In this document: piece after piece, positions 17,232-27,337 of the stretch | How the letters are laid out: each line of letters begins with the position of its first letter | Numbering within the stretch: the stretch's first letter is position 1 | Assembly (NCBI GenBank): GCA_041675145.1 | Contig: JBAYUK010000001.1 | Location: 220,057 to 284,056 of the forward strand | Direction of reading: 5' to 3' | Source: Patescibacteria group bacterium | GTDB taxonomy: Bacteria > Patescibacteriota > JACPGU01 | DNA length: 64,000 nt | Program-made: the position numbers and the translations under genes | Notes under the pieces: model-generated | Databases searched by the model: none | What the model saw: only the letters and a program-made list of their open reading frames with translations | What the model was told of the DNA's origin: nothing

Positions 17232-17303
17232 AGCGGGCAAGCAGGATCGAACTGCCGTCTCATCCTTGGCAAGGACGTGTAATAGCCACTATACGATGCC
17301 CGC
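17232..17303 (-). tRNA. tRNA-Gly (anticodon GCC)
   Basis: Reverse complement GCGGGCATCGTATAGTGGCTATTACACGTCCTTGCCAAGGATG...GGTTCGATCCTGCTTGCCCGCT. Confidence 0.8.
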
Positions 17304-17315
17304 ACGGTTTTTAAA

Positions 17316-17387
<72 letters not shown>

Positions 17388-17408
17388 TCAAGCAACCCTT
17401 AAAAACTT

Positions 17409-17820: not shown

Positions 17821-18237
17821 TTAGTATAAATCGGCTGATTGTATACCCGATCTACCCTTTTTTATATGCGACCTCACCTTCTTCTCCACTAGCCTTTTCA
17901 CCTTCTCTTGCTTGGGGATTTTAGTCGCATATCGTTCTTTTTCAGGGATCAGCGCTTCCCGTATCATGTCTTGTAGCTTCTCCATGGCTTCGAGGTAGTT
18001 TCTATGTTGCGCCCGCTCGCTTTCTGCTGAAACAATTAACTCCCCCATCTTGTTGATTCTATTCGCCAGTTTTTCTAAGACAATACTCTTTTGACTTTCA
18101 TTAAGGGTCTTAGATTTGGCTACTGGGAACCGCAAAACCACTTTACTTTCTGTCTTGTTGACATTTTGCCCACCGGGTCCCCTAGACCTGGCAGTGGCAA
18201 CATCTATTTCGTGGAGTGGTATCTTTATTGTATGCAT
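17821..18237 (-). CDS. arfB: Peptidyl-tRNA hydrolase ArfB (alternative ribosome-rescue factor, GGQ domain)
   Basis: RSRGPGGQNVNKTESKVVLRF with basic C-tail, 138 aa. Confidence 0.8.
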   Translation of the reverse strand: MHTIKIPLHEIDVATARSRGPGGQNVNKTESKVVLRFPVAKSKTLNESQKSIVLEKLANRINKMGELIVSAESERAQHRNYLEAMEKLQDMIREALIPEKERYATKIPKQEKVKRLVEKKVRSHIKKGRSGIQSADLY

Positions 18238-18240
18238 ACT

Positions 18241-19752
18241 TTATTCTACCACTATTTTTTCTTTGATGCGTAGTGCAAGAGATCTACCCACCACTGCTTC
18301 TAGTTGTGGTATCGTAGCTCCTGCTATACCACGAACCGACCCGAACTCTTTTATCAGCTTGCGTCGAGTTGCTGGACCAATACCTAAAACCTCATCAAGA
18401 GAGGAAGTGATGTTGCGTTCACGGCGTAACTTTTTGTGGAAAGTGATCGCAAACCGATGTGCTTCATCTCGAATATTTTGTACAAAATATCCCTCTGGAC
18501 TATCTTTTGATATATCCGCACGCGCAAACTGTAGCTTCTTGATATCTATCCCCCAGACTTCCTCATCACGCTTCGCAAGTCCCACGAGTGGGATATTAAT
18601 ATGTTCTTTTTGGAACAGCTGCCAGATGGTTGAAAGCTGTGGCTTGCCACCATCCAAGATTATGAGATCGGGGTTTCTCCATGGTTTCTTATCGTGGCCA
18701 GTAAGGTGTCCTAAGCGACGAGTGAGCACTTCTTTCATCATCGCAAAGTCGTTTACTCCTTTTACGGTCTTAATCTTAAACTTCCTGTACTCTCTTTTAT
18801 CCATCTTTCCATCTTGCCAGACCACCATACTCCCTACTGGTTCTGCTCCTTGAATATTACTCATATCATAAAGCTCGATACGAAACTTTCCAGATGATAA
18901 TATGGCATACCCAAAAGCTGAATTAATCTTAGCTATGACAGATTGCAAAACATCGGAATCTACTTTAGGAACGCTTTGTTGTTCCTTTACCTTATGTACG
19001 CTTTTATCCCTTACCTTGCCCAAGTGAAGTAACCCTTCTACTTTGTCTCGTACTCTTGCTGCCCCTTCGAAATCTTTCTTTTTAGATAACCTACTCATGT
19101 CTTTCTTTAAACCGCTTACCAAGCTCTCTTTCTTACCTTCAAGGAAGGTAACCAACTGCATTAAGTCCTTCTTATATTCCACCTCTGAGATGTATCCGCC
19201 ACACACCCCGCGACAAAACGCTATATGGTAGTCAAAACACGGACGGTGCTTTTTACGATGCAACTCTACCTGATGGGGAGTCAACTCACACCACTTAAAT
19301 ATTTTTCTTAAAGTCCTCATGCCGTCCTTGAGTAACCCAGCATCAGTATATGGTCCAAATATTTTTATCTTAGTATCTTTACTAGATCCAACTACCTGAC
19401 GAATAAACTCAGGACGAGGAAACTGCTCATGGAAATCTATTTTGATGTATAGAAAAGATTTATCATCTTTAATCTTTATGTTATAGCGAGGAAGATGCTT
19501 TTTAATGAGTTGGGATTCTAAAATTAACGCCTCCATCTCGGATGGAGTCTCGATCCATTTAAGATCAGCAATTAAGGAGACTAAAACATGGGTCTTAGGA
19601 TCATGATCTTTCTTTTGAAAGTAAGAGTTAACACGCTTTTTCAAGTCTTTCGCTTTACCGACATAGAGCAACTTTCCTTTCACATCAAAATACTGGTAAC
19701 AACCAGGGGATGTGGGAACTAGTTTCAGTTTGTCTGCAAGGTGTTGAGTCAT
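18241..19752 (-). CDS. uvrC: Excinuclease ABC subunit C
   Basis: N-terminal GIY-YIG (PGCYQYFDVKGKLLYVGKAKDLKKRVNSYF), C-terminal HhH. Confidence 0.85.
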   Translation of the reverse strand: MTQHLADKLKLVPTSPGCYQYFDVKGKLLYVGKAKDLKKRVNSYFQKKDHDPKTHVLVSLIADLKWIETPSEMEALILESQLIKKHLPRYNIKIKDDKSFLYIKIDFHEQFPRPEFIRQVVGSSKDTKIKIFGPYTDAGLLKDGMRTLRKIFKWCELTPHQVELHRKKHRPCFDYHIAFCRGVCGGYISEVEYKKDLMQLVTFLEGKKESLVSGLKKDMSRLSKKKDFEGAARVRDKVEGLLHLGKVRDKSVHKVKEQQSVPKVDSDVLQSVIAKINSAFGYAILSSGKFRIELYDMSNIQGAEPVGSMVVWQDGKMDKREYRKFKIKTVKGVNDFAMMKEVLTRRLGHLTGHDKKPWRNPDLIILDGGKPQLSTIWQLFQKEHINIPLVGLAKRDEEVWGIDIKKLQFARADISKDSPEGYFVQNIRDEAHRFAITFHKKLRRERNITSSLDEVLGIGPATRRKLIKEFGSVRGIAGATIPQLEAVVGRSLALRIKEKIVVE

Positions 19753-19785: not shown

Positions 19786-20079
19786 TCATTCAAAGAAATA
19801 CGAGTGGCTACCGATATCAATAAGTATTAAAATTAACTGACTTCTGTCAGTTCTGTATAGCAGTAATACATCACTGCGTATGTGACATTCACGAAATTCT
19901 TGCATATCGCCCTTGAGTTGGTGGTCACGATACTTGCTTGCCAGCTTTTCCCCACGAGCGATCGTACGGATAATATCATTGAGTTCATCTAGTGCCTGTT
20001 GATACTTTCCTGATCGACAAATCTTATTATATGCCTTAACAAATCTTTTTGTTTTAATTTGTTGGTACATCTCAGACAC
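19786..20079 (-). CDS. yafQ: Type II toxin YafQ-like (RelE/ParE superfamily)
   Basis: HQLKGDMQEFRECHIRSDVLLLYRTD...GSHS. 8-bp overlap with the upstream antitoxin. Confidence 0.7.
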   Translation of the reverse strand: MSEMYQQIKTKRFVKAYNKICRSGKYQQALDELNDIIRTIARGEKLASKYRDHQLKGDMQEFRECHIRSDVLLLYRTDRSQLILILIDIGSHSYFFE

Positions 20080-20347
20080 CTAAATCCTTAATAAACTCTT
20101 CAACATCAGTATATACCTTTCCCTCTCGTAATGTCTCCTCGACCTCTTTCTTTAAACGCACAGCAAGCGCTTTTTGCTCAGCCCTAGAAGTAGGCTTTCG
20201 AGAGGGCAAAAAAGGCAAGGCCTGATCATGTACCGCCTGCTGAAAGAACACTTTAATTGCAGTAGACATGTCCATCCCTAGGCCAGCAAAGGTTTTTTGC
20301 GCCTCTTTTTTCAGCGATTCATCAATACGAACATTGAGAGTGGTCAT
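20072..20347 (-). CDS. dinJ: Type II antitoxin DinJ/RelB family
   Basis: MTTLNVRIDESLKKEAQKTFAGLGMDMSTAIKVFFQQAV. Confidence 0.7.
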   Translation of the reverse strand: MTTLNVRIDESLKKEAQKTFAGLGMDMSTAIKVFFQQAVHDQALPFLPSRKPTSRAEQKALAVRLKKEVEETLREGKVYTDVEEFIKDLGV

Positions 20348-20413
20348 AGTAGTAATTTAGTAATATATACATTGTAATTACGAAGTCGTTACCTGTCAAC
20401 ACTAAGTCTCCAC

Positions 20414-21486
20414 CTATTCATACCACATGTTCTCGATTTTTTGACCGAGTTCAAAGGTATCTGCATGGCTTAGGACTCCTCGGTACGACTGCATTGTTTG
20501 CAGTAGCTTTTTCTCAACTATCTTTCCGTTTCTATACTCATCCAACTTGTGTCGAATATTTCTAATAATTCGTTGTCGTGTCTTACTTCGAACGAGTCTG
20601 TGGGTCGGAAACACTACATACCCTAGAAAATCTATTCCTTGAGAAAACTTACGAATACTGGTCTTATGCGGGTGAAGTGTGAGTCGCAACTGGTTATGTA
20701 AGAAGCTATTTAGTACTGGGGTTAGCTCCATAAGATACGCCTGGCTATCTGAGACAATCACGAAGTCATCGGTATAGCGCACATAGTTCTTGATACGCAA
20801 GGTATGTTTCACAAACTGATCAAATTCATTCATGTAGATATTGGCGAACAACTGAGATGTGAGGTTTCCAATAGGTATACCTGTTTTTCGGGAGCCCTCC
20901 TTACTCTCTCTCTCTCTCTCTCTCTCTCGAAGGTGCCTACCTGAAGGCTATAGCTTTGGATAATATTCTGGATCAACTGAAGAGCCCGCAAATCAGTGAT
21001 GCGTTTCGAGATAATATCAAATAAGATGTCATGATCGACTGAATCAAAGAATTTACGAACATCACATTTTAGAGCAAAGCATGGGCGAGTGTTGTTACGC
21101 GATACTGAACGCAACATATTCTCAAGAACCGCTACTCCCCGGTGAGTGCCAAAACCTATGCGACAAGAAAAAGATGTGGCTATAAATGTCGGTTCAAAGA
21201 TAGAGTTTAAAACTCTAAACAACGCGTGATGCACTACCCGATCCCGAACTTGAGCTTTATGAATATGTCGCTGTTTGGGATCCTGGATATAAAATCCTTG
21301 ATAAGGCCCGTGCTGATAAGTTTCGCTTTTAAGCTCGCTATAAAGGGCAAATAAGTTTTGCTCTATATCTTTTTCAAAAGCTATCACATCTTCCTTGTGC
21401 CTCTTATCATGTCGGAATTCTTCCCATGATAGAAAGAGATTTGGTACTGAAATAATGGTATGATAGATTTTGGAAAATTTCTGCAT
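20414..21486 (-). pseudogene. DGR reverse transcriptase, interrupted by a +1/-2 frameshift inside a (TC)12 tract
   Basis: N-terminal segment (frame of 20830-21501) has RT motifs 1-3 (FALKCDVRKFFDSVDH). C-terminal frame reads ...GIPIGNLTSQLFANIYMNEF...YVRYTDDFVI (DGR-specific I/LGxxxSQ plus YxDD). The two frames meet in the GA/TC repeat. Confidence 0.8.
20904..20928. repeat. Dinucleotide microsatellite (CT)12C on plus, (GA) on the coding strand, inside the RT gene
   Basis: ttaCTCTCTCTCTCTCTCTCTCTCTCTCga counted directly. Confidence 0.95.
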
Positions 21487-21508
21487 ACTAATAATATACA
21501 ATATCCCA

Positions 21509-21856
21509 ATGGACCACTTCGATATACCCTTATTTAAAAAGTCATACGACCTGTATAAAACACTGTATGGGTACCGTCTTGCTGTACCAAAACTAGATCG
21601 CTATGGTATCTGGCAAAAGACCGAGAATACCTTACTAGAAGTAATCGAACACGTACTCCTTGCAAGTCAAAAAGCAAAACAAGAAAAGATCTCCCATCTA
21701 GAACAAGCAAGCTCAAGCCTGAACCTTCTTCGTGTTTTTATCCGCCTCATGAAAGACACGAAGGCACTGGACATGAAAAAGTACCTCATACTAGAAGTAG
21801 CCATTGAAGAGATAGGCCGCATGCTTGGTGGCTGGATAAAGTCTACAAAAGAATAA
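21509..21856 (+). CDS. avd: DGR accessory variability determinant (Avd), four-helix-bundle family
   Basis: MDHFDIPLFKKSYDLYK... and C-terminal LEVAIEEIGRMLGGWIKSTKE resemble Bordetella bAvd (..IAEVGRILGSWI..). ATG at 21509. Alternative TTG at 21470. Confidence 0.7.
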   Translation: MDHFDIPLFKKSYDLYKTLYGYRLAVPKLDRYGIWQKTENTLLEVIEHVLLASQKAKQEKISHLEQASSSLNLLRVFIRLMKDTKALDMKKYLILEVAIEEIGRMLGGWIKSTKE

Positions 21857-21881
21857 ATACCCACTAAGAGTGGGTATTTAT
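21856..21881 (+). terminator. Hairpin terminator directly after the avd stop
   Basis: atacccact-aag-agtgggtat then ttat. Confidence 0.5.
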
Positions 21882-21901
21882 AACCTGTTCTAGGCGAGAT
21901 G

Positions 21902-22019
21902 ACTTCCGGGAGGACGACACGCCCACATTGTCGTTGCGGTTACTGTCCCAGTTGTTGTTGACATTGAGACCGTCGCCATCAAAGCTGCCAATGTTGACAT
22001 GGTTGCCGTCCGAATCGAT
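21902..22019 (-). repeat. DGR template repeat (TR)
   Basis: 118 bp collinear with 22368-22485. 15 mismatches, all at plus-strand T (= A in the minus-sense TR). Encodes an Asn-rich peptide (NHVNIGSFDGDGLNVNNNWDSNRNDN). Confidence 0.85.
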
Positions 22020-22271
22020 AATTGCCTTTCTCCATCCGTTGTGTTTCACTAGAAATCGAGACGTTTACCGCACTGCTTATCTCTTTTTCCTGTATCTTTT
22101 TTGGGGGCTTACTCCACCAGAGAGAGGCAAGAAGTTCGATCTCTATCCTTTTTTGCACACTACCGTCATCCTTAGATAACGATACTCCGGCATCCCAGGC
22201 GAGATATCTCGTGAGTTTAAACCGTAATCCAAACTACATGAACGAGATACTCATACTATATAAGAATTCAA

Positions 22272-22309
22272 AGTAAAAGAAAATGCCGACAGCTAAAGCT
22301 GCCGGCATT
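22272..22309 (-). terminator. Rho-independent terminator of the DGR target gene
   Basis: atgccgacagc-taaa-gctgccggcat followed by a T-run on the minus strand. Confidence 0.5.
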
Positions 22310-22335
22310 GCAAAAAGGGTTCAAAAGTAAAAGTA

Positions 22336-23151
22336 TTAGGGGTTCAAGGACTCAAGAGCCTTCGTAAACTTCCGGGAGGACGACACGCCCACATCGTCGC
22401 CGCGGTAACTGCCCCAGTAGCTGTCGACATCGAGACCGCCGCCATCAAAGCTGCCAATGCGGACAAGGCTGCCGCCCGAATCGATGGAAGCCGTCCTGGC
22501 ATAGAGCTTCATAAAGATCCGCTCCCCAGTGGCCAAGAAATGGCCGATGATGGTATACACCATCACCTGAGCGGTGGGAACTTCTTCGAGCTCCTTGTCC
22601 AGAAGCTCACCTTGCTCGCTCCAGTTTTTAGCAAGCGATCCTGGCACCTCGTCCTTGCGGACCAAGTACCACCCAACGGTTCCTTTTTCTTGAGCAAAAG
22701 CCTGGGAATTGTACCAGGCATCCTCATGCCGATAGAAGAGCGCTCTCTCGACTCTGGACCTTATATCCAGAATGGAGAGCGGAAAAACAGCCACGAGAAT
22801 GTGGGTTGTCTTACACGCACGCAACTCCTCTTCAGAGTACGGCACTTCTTCCAGAGTCTGCAACTCTTCAAGGGTAGGAGTAATGCCGAAGTGTTTTGTG
22901 GCCTCTTCCACCCCGAAGTAGTTGCTTCCCATAATCCTGCGTGCCTTCACCTGGGATTGTGAGGACTTGCTCGTCATGGCAATGAATTCGACAGCCCTTC
23001 GGGCAGCCTCACCCATCATTTCCTGGAAAATATCACTGTTGACGACTGCCAACTGTGCGTTTTCCTTGCTCGTTTCTGCCAAGCCTTGCTTGGCGCCGAT
23101 CTCGGCCAACTGACCGAGTTTGTCTTTCTGTCCGGATGTGATCAATTTCAT
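22336..23151 (-). CDS. DGR target (variable) protein with C-terminal VR
   Basis: C-terminus ...IDSGGSLVRIGSFDGGGLDVDSYWGSYRGDDVGVSSSRKF aligns with the TR-encoded peptide. AAGGAGG RBS. Confidence 0.8.
   Translation of the reverse strand: MKLITSGQKDKLGQLAEIGAKQGLAETSKENAQLAVVNSDIFQEMMGEAARRAVEFIAMTSKSSQSQVKARRIMGSNYFGVEEATKHFGITPTLEELQTLEEVPYSEEELRACKTTHILVAVFPLSILDIRSRVERALFYRHEDAWYNSQAFAQEKGTVGWYLVRKDEVPGSLAKNWSEQGELLDKELEEVPTAQVMVYTIIGHFLATGERIFMKLYARTASIDSGGSLVRIGSFDGGGLDVDSYWGSYRGDDVGVSSSRKFTKALESLNP
22368..22485 (-). repeat. DGR variable repeat (VR) at the 3' end of the target gene
   Basis: Offset +466 from the TR, no indels. 3'-proximal 27 nt (plus 22368-22394) identical to the TR and GC-rich (IMH-like). 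Confidence 0.85.
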
Positions 23152-23201
23152 GTCATCATCCTCCTTTGTAATCTCCCATCCGAGGTAGTGTGAGTACTTT
23201 C

Positions 23202-23250
23202 AGACGAGGGAACTGCTTACCTTCAATACCAGGCAGGCAACTCCCTCATC
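23202..23250 (-). promoter_or_regulatory. 15-bp stem-loop in the 5' leader of the DGR target mRNA
   Basis: Minus-sense AGAUGAGGGAGUUGC-19 nt-GCAGUUCCCUCGUCU, fully paired with 3 G-U wobbles. Lies 35 nt upstream of the RBS. Confidence 0.45.
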
Positions 23251-23284
23251 TGAAATAGGTTAGTTTTCAAAGATCAATTTCTAT

Positions 23285-23313
23285 ATTTTATCACATTTTA
23301 TACTAAAAAGCAA
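23285..23313 (-). promoter_or_regulatory. Putative promoter of the target gene (TTGCTT-N17-TAAAAT on the minus strand)
   Basis: Reverse-complement reading of 23285-23313. Confidence 0.4.
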
Positions 23314-23452
23314 GCTTTTTCTGTATTCCTTTGATCTCTTCCCTTCTGGTCAGTCTAGTCTTGACTTGTGGATAATAGTATGCTAAGATGAAGATATTAA
23401 GACGAAAAGGGGTCCAAACGGCTAACTACCTAAGGCACCCTTTTCTTTTTGT

Positions 23453-23971
23453 CTAAAATACACTCTCTTCTGCTATTTTTTGCCTAATATCACCATCATC
23501 TAAATATACAAAATATTTATTAGATAACTTCTTATAAAGTGAGGATCTAAACCTTCTATTTGGAAATAATATTTTTTCTAGTCTTTCTTCCTCAACAAGA
23601 AAATCGATTAACATTTTGTAGTCCCCATCTCCAGAAACTAACACGATTTTCCCGAAATCTTCTCGTCTATATATTCGTACCATAATGTTGAAGATAATAT
23701 CAGAATCAACATTCCCCTTCTTGGTGCCGAGCATAGCAGCGTTATGTTGACGAAAAACTAAAATAAAACCTGCGAGTTGTATCTCTTCATATAAATCCTG
23801 ATATTGTTCTTGGACATAGCCTAAATAGTAATATGCCTGAGTAACGCCATATTTCTTTTCAAGATATACACGAAAACGAGCTAGATCAATATTCCAAGGA
23901 GGATCGATTTTGGCTGTACCCATATATAGATTCTGTCCATCAATAAACGCATAGTTGTTTTGTTTTTGCAT
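23453..23971 (-). CDS. NYN-domain (LabA-like) protein, predicted RNase
   Basis: YAFIDGQNLY ... VLVSGDGDY signature. Confidence 0.75.
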   Translation of the reverse strand: MQKQNNYAFIDGQNLYMGTAKIDPPWNIDLARFRVYLEKKYGVTQAYYYLGYVQEQYQDLYEEIQLAGFILVFRQHNAAMLGTKKGNVDSDIIFNIMVRIYRREDFGKIVLVSGDGDYKMLIDFLVEEERLEKILFPNRRFRSSLYKKLSNKYFVYLDDGDIRQKIAEESVF

Positions 23972-23981
23972 TGTGATTAAG

Positions 23982-25985
23982 TTATTTCTTTTTTGTTTTA
24001 CCTTCGCGGCGTCTCACCGTCTCCAGCTCAAATATATGATCCCTGATATCTGCTGCTTTTTCAAACTCGAGGTTACGAGCAGCCAAGTCCATCTTTTTTT
24101 CCATATCTCTTACCATCTGGCGGAATTGTTTTTCCGGTAGAGCTTCAATATCTACCGGTAGACCGTCGATTCTCTTTTTCTCCTCACCCTTAGCACTTCT
24201 CCAGTCACCATCCTCAGACACCGCCTTATCTATTGTATGTGGCGTAATCCCATGCTTGGTATTGTATGCTTCCTGGATCGTGCGGCGACGATTCGTCTCG
24301 TCGATAGCCATCTGCATAGAACCCGTAATACTATCTGCATACATAATTACTTTTCCATCCACATTACGAGCTGCTCGTCCCATGATCTGGACAAAGGCCG
24401 AGTAGGAACGCAGAAACCCTTCTTTATCTGCATCTAAAATTGCCACCAGCGACACCTCTGGTAAGTCGAGTCCTTCACGCAGGAGGTTAATACCGATCAA
24501 ACAGTCATAGCGCCCGAGTCGCAGGTCGCGCAAGATGTCCAAGCGATCGAGTGTATCCACATCTGAGTGCATGTAAGCTGCCTTAATACCCAACTCTTGC
24601 AAGTAAAGTGAGATGCGCTCGGCCAGCTTTTTGGTAAGGGTTGTGATTAAGATGCGCTGTCCCCTGGCAGTACGCTCCCGAATCTGTTCAATCAAGTCAT
24701 CGATCTGGTTGGTAGTAGGTTTTATTTCAATAACTGGGTCAACTAGGCCAGTTGGACGAATAATTTGCTCAACAACCTGGATACTTTTCTCTATCTCGTA
24801 GGGAGCTGGAGTAGCTGAGACATACACTATCTGCTTTTGCCGTGCATCAAACTCATCAAAAGTAAGTGGTCGATTATCTCGAGCAGAGGGCAGGCGGAAA
24901 CCAAAATCTACTAGATTTTGCTTACGAGCTGCATCTCCGTTATACATACCCCGTACCTGCGGTACGGTCATGTGAGACTCATCAATAAACGTTAAGAAGT
25001 CTTTTGGAAAGAAGTCTATTAGTGTCGACGGGGGAGAGCCCGGCGTACGACCAGATAAGTGCCGGGCATAGTTTTCAATACCATTCACATACCCTACTTC
25101 TTTGAGCATCTCAAGATCGTAGTTTACTTTCTGCTCTATTCGCTGCGCCTCGATCAACTTGTCGTGCTTTTTGAAATACTCAATGCGTTCTTTGAGTTCC
25201 TCGTAAATACTTTTCTCAGCTCGTGCGATACTATCTGCTGTAGTCATAAAGATCTTAGCCGGGTAGATCGTAAAATCGGTAAGCTTTTCCATCACTGATC
25301 CCGTAATAGGGCTGACCACTCCAATGGAGTCTATTTCTGAACCAAAGAACTCCACCCGAATAACATTCTCCTCATAGGCAGGAATAACCTCTACAGTGTC
25401 TCCCCGTACTCTAAAACGACCGCGAGCAAGCTCCATATCATTTCTTTCGTAAAGGTTGGCGATTAGAAAGTTCAGGAACGCTTCACGGGTCATCTTACCG
25501 CCTTTTTCTATTTTAAAAGAAGCATTGAGGTACTCCTCCGGTTCTCCGAGACCATATATACATGAAACAGAGGCAACAATGATCACATCCCGACGCGTTA
25601 AAAGTGCGTGAGTAGCAGCATGACGCAAGCGGTCTATCTCATCGTTAATTGATGTCTCTTTTTCTATATAGGTATCTGTCTTGGGGATATATGCTTCTGG
25701 CTGGTAGTAGTCGTAATATGAGACAAAGTAGTGTACGGCATTGTCTGGAAAAAAAGCCTTAAACTCTGAGGCAAGCTGGGCAGCTAAAGTCTTGTTGTGG
25801 GCGAGTACCAAAGTCGGACGATTCTGAGCTGCTATGATATTTGCCATAGTAAAGGTCTTACCAGAGCCTGTGACACCTAAAAGCGTCTGGTCGCGATACC
25901 CAGACTCAACTCCTGATAGTAGTTTTTTAATAGCCTCCGGCTGATCTCCTTGTGGCTGAAATGGGGAAACAAGATTAAAGGACAT
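23982..25985 (-). CDS. uvrB: Excinuclease ABC subunit B
   Basis: [14 protein letters not shown]...[15 protein letters not shown]... full-length helicase and UVR domain. Confidence 0.9.
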
Positions 25986-25991
25986 GTAGAA

Positions 25992-26246
25992 CTATTTATT
26001 ATAAACATCTCTCCTGTGCCCAGCTTTTAGCACAATAATACACTCACCCACAATGTCAAAAAAAACACGGTAGTCGCCAATACGAAACTTAAATGTACCA
26101 AGCTCAGGATCAAGTAATCTCTCGGCGTGCCGGTAAGGATCAGCCAGATTCCGAACAAGCGTTTTGTCTATTCTTTTCCGAACTACAAAATCAAGTTTCT
26201 GTATTTGCTTGAGAGCTCTATTTGTATACTGATATTCGTATGCCAT
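25992..26246 (-). CDS. Type II toxin, RelE/ParE family
   Basis: FKFRIGDYRVFFDIVGECIIVLKAGHRRDVY. Confidence 0.7.
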   Translation of the reverse strand: MAYEYQYTNRALKQIQKLDFVVRKRIDKTLVRNLADPYRHAERLLDPELGTFKFRIGDYRVFFDIVGECIIVLKAGHRRDVYNK

Positions 26247-26251
26247 AAGAC

Positions 26252-26497
26252 CTACCCAAAAACCTCTTCGTGAGAATGCAACTTACCTTGCTTTGCCTCA
26301 AGGCGAGCGGCACGAATATCCGCAAGAAATTCTGGTGAAGACAGCGCCAACAGATCCTCAAAATAGTCCAGATTAATCAAAGCTGAGACTGCTTTTCCTT
26401 TATTGGTGATTACGAAGTACTTCTCTTTTTCGTTTACCAAACGAATAGCATCTGCAATGTTATCACGAAACGCCGATGTGGTAAGTGTTTTTTCCAT
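26252..26497 (-). CDS. Type II antitoxin, Phd/YefM family
   Basis: MEKTLTTSAFRDNIADAIRLVNEKEKYFVITNKGKAVSALINLDYFEDLL. Confidence 0.7.
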   Translation of the reverse strand: MEKTLTTSAFRDNIADAIRLVNEKEKYFVITNKGKAVSALINLDYFEDLLALSSPEFLADIRAARLEAKQGKLHSHEEVFG

Positions 26498-26665: not shown

Positions 26666-27337
26666 CTAAGTAATCTTTTTATTAATCTTCATTACACAAG
26701 CATCATCGATACCGCCCTTTGCACTCACATAGACTGCATACATAAAAGTTTCCTTTTTTGTGGAATGTTGCCCGCCGAAATCATCCCCAAAGTCGGGGTC
26801 ATTTGTATAGAACTCCGTGTTGTTCATGCCTGTAACTACATTAAAGTGGGTAGTAAAACGAGGTGGCATACTGGTTTGGCGCAAGAACCAGTGAGATAAA
26901 GGTACTAAAACTGGGCGTTGTTCGTTTAGTTCTGATTCGATATCCATATCCGTGGGAATTTTTGGCGAAAATATGCCTCCTTCTTGGACAAAAGAAATAA
27001 AATGCTCAATTGCTATAGCATCATAGCCGTCTTTTAAAACAGTTCGCATCTTTTGCAGATACTCGATCATTTCTGACGAATCAATAAAACTACTGTTGAG
27101 CTGAAATAGTGCTGGGTGTAGGCCAACGATTTCCACATCAAATCCGTGTGCTAGAAAAAACCTTCCTAATTGAGGAGTGGTAGTCCCCCAAGAGTAAACT
27201 CCAAGCTCTTTTCTGATATCTTCGTAAGAAATATCTAGATTATAGTAGTCCGCTATCATCGCAACACAAGCAACCCCACAATCATTGCTCATGTTAGGCT
27301 GTTGAATCAAGTTAACTTTTAAATCAATTTCTGTCAT
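26666..27337 (-). CDS. Papain-like cysteine peptidase, C39-like domain protein (no signal peptide)
   Basis: QQPNMSNDCGVACVAMIADYY N-terminal Cys box. Confidence 0.55.
   Translation of the reverse strand: MTEIDLKVNLIQQPNMSNDCGVACVAMIADYYNLDISYEDIRKELGVYSWGTTTPQLGRFFLAHGFDVEIVGLHPALFQLNSSFIDSSEMIEYLQKMRTVLKDGYDAIAIEHFISFVQEGGIFSPKIPTDMDIESELNEQRPVLVPLSHWFLRQTSMPPRFTTHFNVVTGMNNTEFYTNDPDFGDDFGGQHSTKKETFMYAVYVSAKGGIDDACVMKINKKIT

Follow-up and report, generated by a model that had tools for sequence, protein, structure and literature searches.

A GA dinucleotide repeat breaks the reverse transcriptase frame in one assembly of a Patescibacteria diversity-generating retroelement located in a variable slot between uvrB and uvrC

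In diversity-generating retroelements (DGRs), a reverse transcriptase (RT) and an accessory variability determinant (Avd) reverse-transcribe the RNA of a template repeat (TR) with misincorporation at adenines, and the resulting cDNA replaces a variable repeat (VR). Here we describe a DGR of a Patescibacteria group bacterium, located between uvrB and uvrC in a stretch of 64,000 nt (GenBank assembly GCA_041675145.1, contig JBAYUK010000001.1, positions 220,057 to 284,056 of the forward strand), which is called the window below and in whose own numbering all positions are given. Among the described systems, the closest are the DGRs of Patescibacteria, also known as the candidate phyla radiation (CPR): 'DGR clade 2' of Roux et al. 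2021 is cellular and Patescibacteria-restricted (PMC8144416), and Wu et al. 2018 (PMC5758913) assign 90% of CPR DGRs to an architecture named 'B3'. We infer that the layout found in the window is of the B3 type. The DGR in the window is genuine, complete and of the Patescibacteria type, and the reading frame of its RT gene is broken at a long GA repeat, which may act as a switch. The cassette comprises the following features:

20414 to 21486, minus strand: DGR RT gene, with RVT_1 matches on both halves; split into the open reading frames (ORFs) 21486-20830 (218 aa) and 20851-20414 (145 aa)
20904 to 20928, minus strand: (GA)12G tract as read on the gene strand, (CT)12.5 on the plus strand, detected with Tandem Repeats Finder (TRF); site of the RT frame break
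21509 to 21856, plus strand: avd; PF22296 (bAvd) 66 bits (cut-off 40) and NF033474 79.1 bits, just under the cut-off of 80
21853 to 21881, minus strand: 13-bp hairpin with a T run directly 3' of the TR; fold z-score -5.75, terminator-like in the terminator scan
21902 to 22019, minus strand: TR of 118 nt with 31 adenines, rich in AAC and AAT codons
22282 to 22309, minus strand: 12-bp GC-rich hairpin with a T run, 27 nt past the target stop; terminator-like in the fold and terminator scans
22336 to 23151, minus strand: DGR target gene of 271 aa, with the VR at its 3' end and no Pfam family
22368 to 22485, minus strand: VR of 118 nt, differing from the TR at 15 of 118 positions
22439, minus strand: single-base difference between assemblies, in the VR at the position of TR adenine 21973

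All mismatches between the TR and the VR were found at TR adenines (15/15, with 31 A in 118 nt), for which the chance value is about 2e-9, and the 3'-most 27 nt of the VR (22368-22394) were identical to the TR, GC-rich and similar to an initiation of mutagenic homing (IMH) element. The motifs of the DGR clade could be read directly in the RT, as GIPIGNLTSQLFANIY (IGNLTSQ) and RYTDDF (YTDD), and the closest solved structure was bRT of the phage BPP-1 (8ub7, E = 1.6e-44). The match to PF22296 identified the avd product as a four-helix bundle of the Avd type. The C-terminal ~120 aa of the target correspond to the C-type-lectin/formylglycine-generating enzyme (FGE) fold and the VR is located at the C-terminus, as in other DGR targets; no signal peptide was evident on the target by eye. 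At least 683 proteins of ~255 aa make up its family, and those among them that are named all come from Patescibacteria.

The arrangement of the cassette was also that of its relatives. Of 80 related metagenome loci, at least 57 have avd in reverse orientation directly upstream of the RT gene, and the order target, TR, reversed avd and RT is the usual layout for this RT clade. In the window avd is antisense between the TR and the RT gene, and the divergent start codons of avd and RT have only 22 nt between them, so that the promoters of both genes must sit within each other's coding regions. A near-consensus promoter-like site, TTGACA-17-GATAAT (21994-22022, plus strand), lies inside the TR, antisense to the TR and the target, and may be due to chance; the hairpins at 21853-21881 and 22282-22309 could be terminators or DGR cis elements. 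The RT was 53-61% identical to thousands of Patescibacteria RTs, reaching 61% with RTs of metagenome-assembled genomes named Pacebacteria, Minisyncoccia, Staskawiczbacteria and others. A phage origin was not indicated, as two of the 80 best RT matches on viral contigs were 52-54% identical and the others at most 42%.

The initial annotation of this stretch had missed that the RT frame is broken at (GA)12G (20904-20928). With one GA unit fewer the gene becomes a single RT ORF of 356 aa, and exactly this form, (GA)11G with an intact 356-aa RT, was present in two other assemblies of the same population, ENA ERZ27247358 (on a 377-kb contig) and Logan SRR6484325. The tract measured 25 nt in the window vs 23 nt in the loci L081, L082 and L083. 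The NCBI record, a contig of 428,244 bp with locus tags WC045_, gives the RT as two separate pieces and labels one of these a hypothetical protein. Judged from the assembled sequence, the RT is genetically off in this assembly, having 12 units vs the in-frame 11. The tract encodes part of a loop whose length differs among homologs and which, compared with bRT, amounts to an insertion of 17 aa. It was the only long simple repeat in the 64-kb window, where the next dinucleotide repeat was (AT)5 and no homopolymers of 9 nt or more were found.

Over the ~28 kb that could be compared as consensus sequences, the window differed from the ENA and Logan assemblies at two places only, by the one GA unit and by the VR base at 22439, which is G (Gly) in the window vs A (Asp) in the other two and is a TR adenine site. 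Both differences are thus at the two sites that are expected to be hypermutable. The difference at 22439 is consistent with recent DGR activity, and from this one VR position in the compared consensus assemblies we infer that the element was recently active in the population.

Three ways in which a full-length RT or its C-terminal half might still be made from the broken gene were considered and rejected. Programmed -1 ribosomal frameshifting through (GA)12 lacks an X XXY YYZ slippery heptamer, and transcriptional slippage lacks a homopolymer run at the site. The AAGGAGG sequence after the tract could have been an internal ribosome-binding site; no start codon was found at a usable distance from it, and it was not conserved in the two other interrupted RT loci described below (L174 and L175).

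Repeats of this kind were found in other RTs as well. A run of (ER)n in the same loop, just upstream of GxPIGNLTSQ, occurs in many Patescibacteria RTs and is lacking in others; it was borne by 37 of 120 RTs in a list biased by shared words and by 4 of 77 in a motif-based sample. At the DNA level, pure (GA)n tracts of 16-27 nt were present in this loop in L123, L130, L143, L174 and L175, measuring 20, 17 and 16 nt in the first three. In L174 (1180-1206, (AG)13.5, 27 nt) and L175 (1137-1157, 21 nt), two unrelated Patescibacteria RT loci found via truncated proteins in an exhaustive search, the RT is split exactly at the AG tract. Removal of one unit from L174 and addition of one unit to L175 gave full-length RT ORFs with all motifs. 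In a neighbour-joining tree, the tract-bearing RTs were spread widely. The 448 kb of related loci contained only five dinucleotide repeats of at least 14 nt, four of them inside RT genes: three in this loop, one in another RT loop and the fifth 62 nt upstream of an RT start. The repeat in the other loop is a (GA)17 of 34 nt, in frame, in a more distant RT (L167:532-565), and the upstream one is a (TG)13 before another RT's start codon (L131:19-44). Among 78 RT loci from IMG/VR, mostly of phage type and with two exceptions at most 42% identical to the RT in the window, none had a GA tract reaching 8 nt in the loop, a scan of viral contigs for a GA tract beside an RT motif gave no matches, and neither did a metagenome scan for the tract flanks with a variable gap.

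The tract in the window has several of the features by which contingency loci are recognised: it is a long and perfect repeat within an ORF, it shifts the frame, and its length is polymorphic among consensus assemblies that are otherwise identical. We give an even chance to the reading that the (GA)n tract found in a subset of Patescibacteria DGR RTs is a contingency switch of the RT. Slipped-strand gain and loss of GA units would then switch the RT, and hence targeted mutagenesis, on and off. By analogy with simple-repeat contingency loci, slippage would occur at a high rate and be reversible, and the population would hold both RT-on and RT-off cells. A lineage could in this way fix a useful variant while the RT is off and later resume diversification when it is on again; the window would represent the OFF state, and the two other assemblies of the same population the ON state. 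L174 with one unit too many and L175 with one unit too few, both out of frame and otherwise intact, give indirect support for such switching. The length polymorphism and its effect on the frame are demonstrated in the compared sequences; the odds that the change is also reversible and of adaptive value appear balanced.

Alternatively, the frame break may have no regulatory meaning, being an assembly or consensus error or a decay mutation, with the tract as a neutral, slippage-prone insertion in a tolerant loop. We regard this as a possibility to be taken seriously, at somewhat below an even chance. Several observations speak for it and weigh against a switch. Only consensus sequences were compared, and the difference in tract length could be an artefact of assembly or consensus calling; the coverage of L174 is only 2.7x according to its contig name; and the three assemblies may come from different samples. 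The loop is clearly permissive, given its 17-aa insertion and its variable length, and a DGR survey found occasional RTs truncated by a frameshift, for which sequencing error was raised as a possible cause (PMC3521204). Moreover, only a minority of RTs bear a tract (3-6 of 78 loci in the sample unbiased by shared words), so the tract is not a general feature of these DGRs. An artefact or decay, however, sits less well with three independent loci that are each exactly one unit from being in frame and are otherwise intact. At the DNA level the tracts consist of GA units alone and not of mixed Glu/Arg codons, and they turn up again in dispersed branches of the RT tree; long dinucleotide repeats are nearly absent elsewhere in these genomes and concentrated in RT genes; and the sole other difference among the assemblies is in the VR, the other hypermutable site.

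In the literature searched, no paper linked DGR RTs with repeat-based phase variation, and a repeat-interrupted RT is a variant undescribed there. If the tract does act as a switch, a heritable and reversible change of the RT frame would be a simple answer to the question of how DGR mutagenesis is restrained after a good variant has been obtained. Surveys of DGRs in which an intact RT ORF is required would overlook such loci or score them wrongly.

We then considered the surroundings of the cassette, which the initial annotation had described as one accessory island between uvrC and uvrB, consisting of a toxin-antitoxin (TA) pair, the DGR and a gene for an NYN-domain RNase. The flanking and accompanying features are:

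18241 to 19752, minus strand: uvrC; Pfam GIY-YIG, UvrC_RNaseH_dom, HHH_5 and UVR; conserved downstream flank, with its position kept in six relatives
19786 to 20079, minus strand: yafQ/relE-family toxin gene; PF15738 85.8 bits (cut-off 30), TIGR02385 59.9 bits
20072 to 20347, minus strand: relB/dinJ-family antitoxin gene; PF04221 34.5 bits, TIGR02384 68 bits (cut-off 45.65)
20371 to 20399, minus strand: promoter-like site TTGACA-17-TACAAT (11/12) between the RT stop and dinJ, from a consensus scan only
23453 to 23971, minus strand: NYN-domain (PIN-like RNase fold) gene; PF01936 53.1 bits; 10 nt downstream of uvrB
23982 to 25985, minus strand: uvrB; Pfam UvrB_inter, UvrB, Helicase_C and ResIII; 65-66% identical to the UvrB of relatives; upstream flank

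By ORF calls and matches to Pfam- and TIGRFAM-type profiles, all of the previously named genes were present at their coordinates, and the description of uvrC and uvrB as co-oriented and separated only by yafQ-dinJ, the DGR cassette and the NYN gene was correct. The dinJ and yafQ ORFs (91 and 97 aa) overlap by 8 nt; these adjoining small genes, with RelB and YafQ matches above the cut-offs, form a predicted type II TA pair. On the ENA contig the yafQ gene was called at 19788-20072. An ArfB-type ribosome-rescue factor (NF006718, 123 bits) is encoded directly after uvrC (17821-18237), and this gene, a holin_4_2-family gene, secG, an SBP_bac_5 gene and fur make up the conserved downstream backbone. 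The Rfam scan of the window found tRNAs only.

The earlier proposal that the block was inserted could be checked by synteny, as the initial annotation itself had suggested. A scan of representative genomes with UvrC returned only distant relatives (at most 41% identity), with uvrB within 10 kb in 3 of 80, and was dropped for this purpose because they were too distant; a protein search and the contigs of its matches were used instead. The six closest relatives found in this way have UvrC proteins 46-50% identical to that of the window, and two of them are named by their sources, one as Microgenomates and one as candidate division CPR3. All six share the backbone rpsP-KH-trmD-[variable]-uvrB-[variable]-uvrC-arfB-holin_4_2-secG-SBP-fur. 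Their uvrB-uvrC gaps are 23, 683, 952, 1063, 1231 and 1438 nt vs 4229 nt in the window, and contain 0-2 small lineage-specific ORFs each, which vary among lineages. In none of the six did the gap ORFs show similarity to the NYN protein, target, Avd, DinJ or YafQ of the window, and the possibility that they are diverged NYN, TA or target genes was rejected on account of this dissimilarity. The slot therefore exists in all six relatives without the genes of the window, which upholds an inserted accessory block, and since uvrB and uvrC were ancestrally near-adjacent in this clade, the 4.2 kb in the window is extra.

The opposite course of events, in which the arrangement is ancestral and vertically inherited and each relative has lost the block, would require at least six independent complete losses, each refilled by different and unrelated ORFs. 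The RT is also more similar across Patescibacteria (up to 61%) than the host UvrC is to that of its nearest relatives, and the composition of the NYN and target genes is atypical. What can be said for an ancestral block is that the relatives are distant (UvrC 46-50%), with much unsampled history between them and the window, and that one small gene pair did stay in place. This is a second TA pair, a Phd antitoxin with a ParE/RelE-like toxin, directly upstream of uvrB (25992-26497), which is orthologous to and syntenic with a pair in the relative L084 (42% and 51% identity) and, by this comparison, appears to have been vertically retained, unlike dinJ-yafQ; small accessory genes can therefore persist vertically here. 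On balance we consider an ancestral block unlikely. The interval between trmD and uvrB differs in each relative and forms a second variable slot. In the window, the space from trmD to the Phd/ParE pair holds a peptidase C39-like gene (26666-27337, 223 aa, GC 0.394), which none of the six relatives has.

Next to the insertion itself, we asked whether the block is one unit. The initial annotation had noted that parts of it, the target gene in particular, are GC-richer than the flanks. The 67 ORFs of the window have a mean GC of 0.449 (sd 0.042); the highest value, 0.536 (GC3 0.651, z = +2.6), is indeed that of the target, and the lowest, 0.329 (GC3 0.272), is that of the NYN gene. The RT, avd and TA genes are unremarkable, and no uniform atypical composition was found across the block. 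The high GC of the target is a trait of its gene family: the target homologs in L093 (1547-2428) and L102 (222-1004) have a GC of 0.58 and 0.55 vs 0.38 and 0.43 for their own RTs, and GC3 of the family is 0.64-0.74 across three genomes, well above that of the accompanying RT and host locus. It is thus weak evidence for a recent transfer into this genome.

The claim of a single island, with NYN, DGR and dinJ-yafQ inserted together as a mobile unit and the TA pair serving as its addiction module, has in its favour that the genes are contiguous, nearly all co-oriented, tightly packed and all lacking from the slot of the relatives. It could not be maintained, and we consider it very unlikely. The extremes of GC and GC3 stand side by side in the block, with sharp contrasts between adjoining genes. 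No direct repeats flank the block, no integrase or transposase was found among the window ORFs, and no tRNA is located at the borders, the nearest being at 17232-17388. PADLOC reported generic RT models only in the window and no further defence-system signature. Homologs of the TA and NYN genes do not accompany related DGRs: a dinJ-like gene adjoins 1 of the 57 related RTs with at least 700 nt downstream and yafQ was near none of these 57, while NYN was near none of 80 related RTs. Homologous cassettes stand alone elsewhere, as in L093:1547-4366, where a target-TR-avd-RT cassette (target 51% identical) is present without TA or NYN; by ORF reading, this cassette adjoins cell-division genes (an ftsI-like gene and rsmH), a further instance of a DGR in a housekeeping neighbourhood. 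The suggestion that the TA pair stabilises the element has no comparative support in these counts, and the pair comes with a strong promoter-like site of its own.

It is common for variable slots to hold DGRs, TA pairs and small nucleases. The explanation that we consider probable overall is a mosaic in a variable slot, containing a DGR that was recently active and whose RT is off in this assembly. The 4.2 kb would be specific to this lineage, occupying a variable intergenic slot of an otherwise conserved Patescibacteria backbone, and would consist of three unrelated accessory modules: the NYN gene behind uvrB, then the DGR, and then dinJ-yafQ with its own promoter-like site. Judging from DGRs in general, RT and Avd would copy the TR RNA with adenine errors and transfer this copy to the 3' end of the target, whose product would be a cytoplasmic C-type-lectin-fold protein. 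Three points count against this explanation. With UvrC identities of at most 50%, the relatives are too distant to resolve the timing and order of the acquisitions; loss of the block in all relatives, although improbable, is conceivable; and the promoters and terminators were called from consensus matches only. In itself the island is ordinary and mainly documents a variable uvrB-uvrC slot in a single clade of Patescibacteria; what could matter is the repeat in the RT gene.

Outside the six relatives, a distant WWE3 genome (L008:3657-11332) has uvrB and uvrC co-oriented and 4.3 kb apart, with a gap that includes a 965-aa ORF. On two other Patescibacteria contigs, a DGR RT is located within ~4 kb of uvrC (L128:2001-5936) or of uvrB (L110:1-5996). 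An association between DGRs and uvr genes was rejected, as 2 of 80 related loci is about the chance expectation and both the orientation and the slot differ.

Compared with the described systems, the DGR in the window is like other Patescibacteria (CPR) DGRs in being cellular and chromosomal, in having avd, TR and RT, and in its short target of unassigned function with a C-terminal VR. It is unlike them in that the RT is interrupted at (GA)12 and in that the cassette lies between uvrB and uvrC beside a TA pair and an NYN gene. Compared with the DGR of the Bordetella phage BPP-1 (Mtd, Avd and bRT; PDB 8ub7 and 1yu0), the DGR in the window is not phage-borne, its avd is on the opposite strand between TR and RT, its target is small and apparently cytoplasmic, and its RT, unlike bRT, has the 17-aa loop insertion that holds the repeat. 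The dinJ-yafQ pair resembles type II systems such as DinJ-YafQ and RelB-RelE, with the antitoxin gene upstream of the toxin gene, overlapping ORFs and predicted products that pass the Pfam cut-offs; no link between it and the DGR could be demonstrated. The block as a whole is like genomic islands in that accessory genes of partly atypical composition lie between conserved core genes, and unlike them in having no integrase, tRNA or flanking repeats, in its mosaic content, and in that the neighbouring trmD-uvrB interval is variable too.

The GA tract itself differs from the contingency loci of Haemophilus, Neisseria and Campylobacter in its host, an uncultured environmental Patescibacterium, in being a dinucleotide repeat, and in lying in a DGR RT gene. 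It is like those loci in that a long perfect repeat lies within an ORF, in that a change of one unit toggles the frame, and in that otherwise identical genomes differ at the tract. As in phasevarions, which depend on phase-variable methyltransferases (PMC5909438, PMC7383803), the gene that would be switched encodes an enzyme with downstream effects on diversity.

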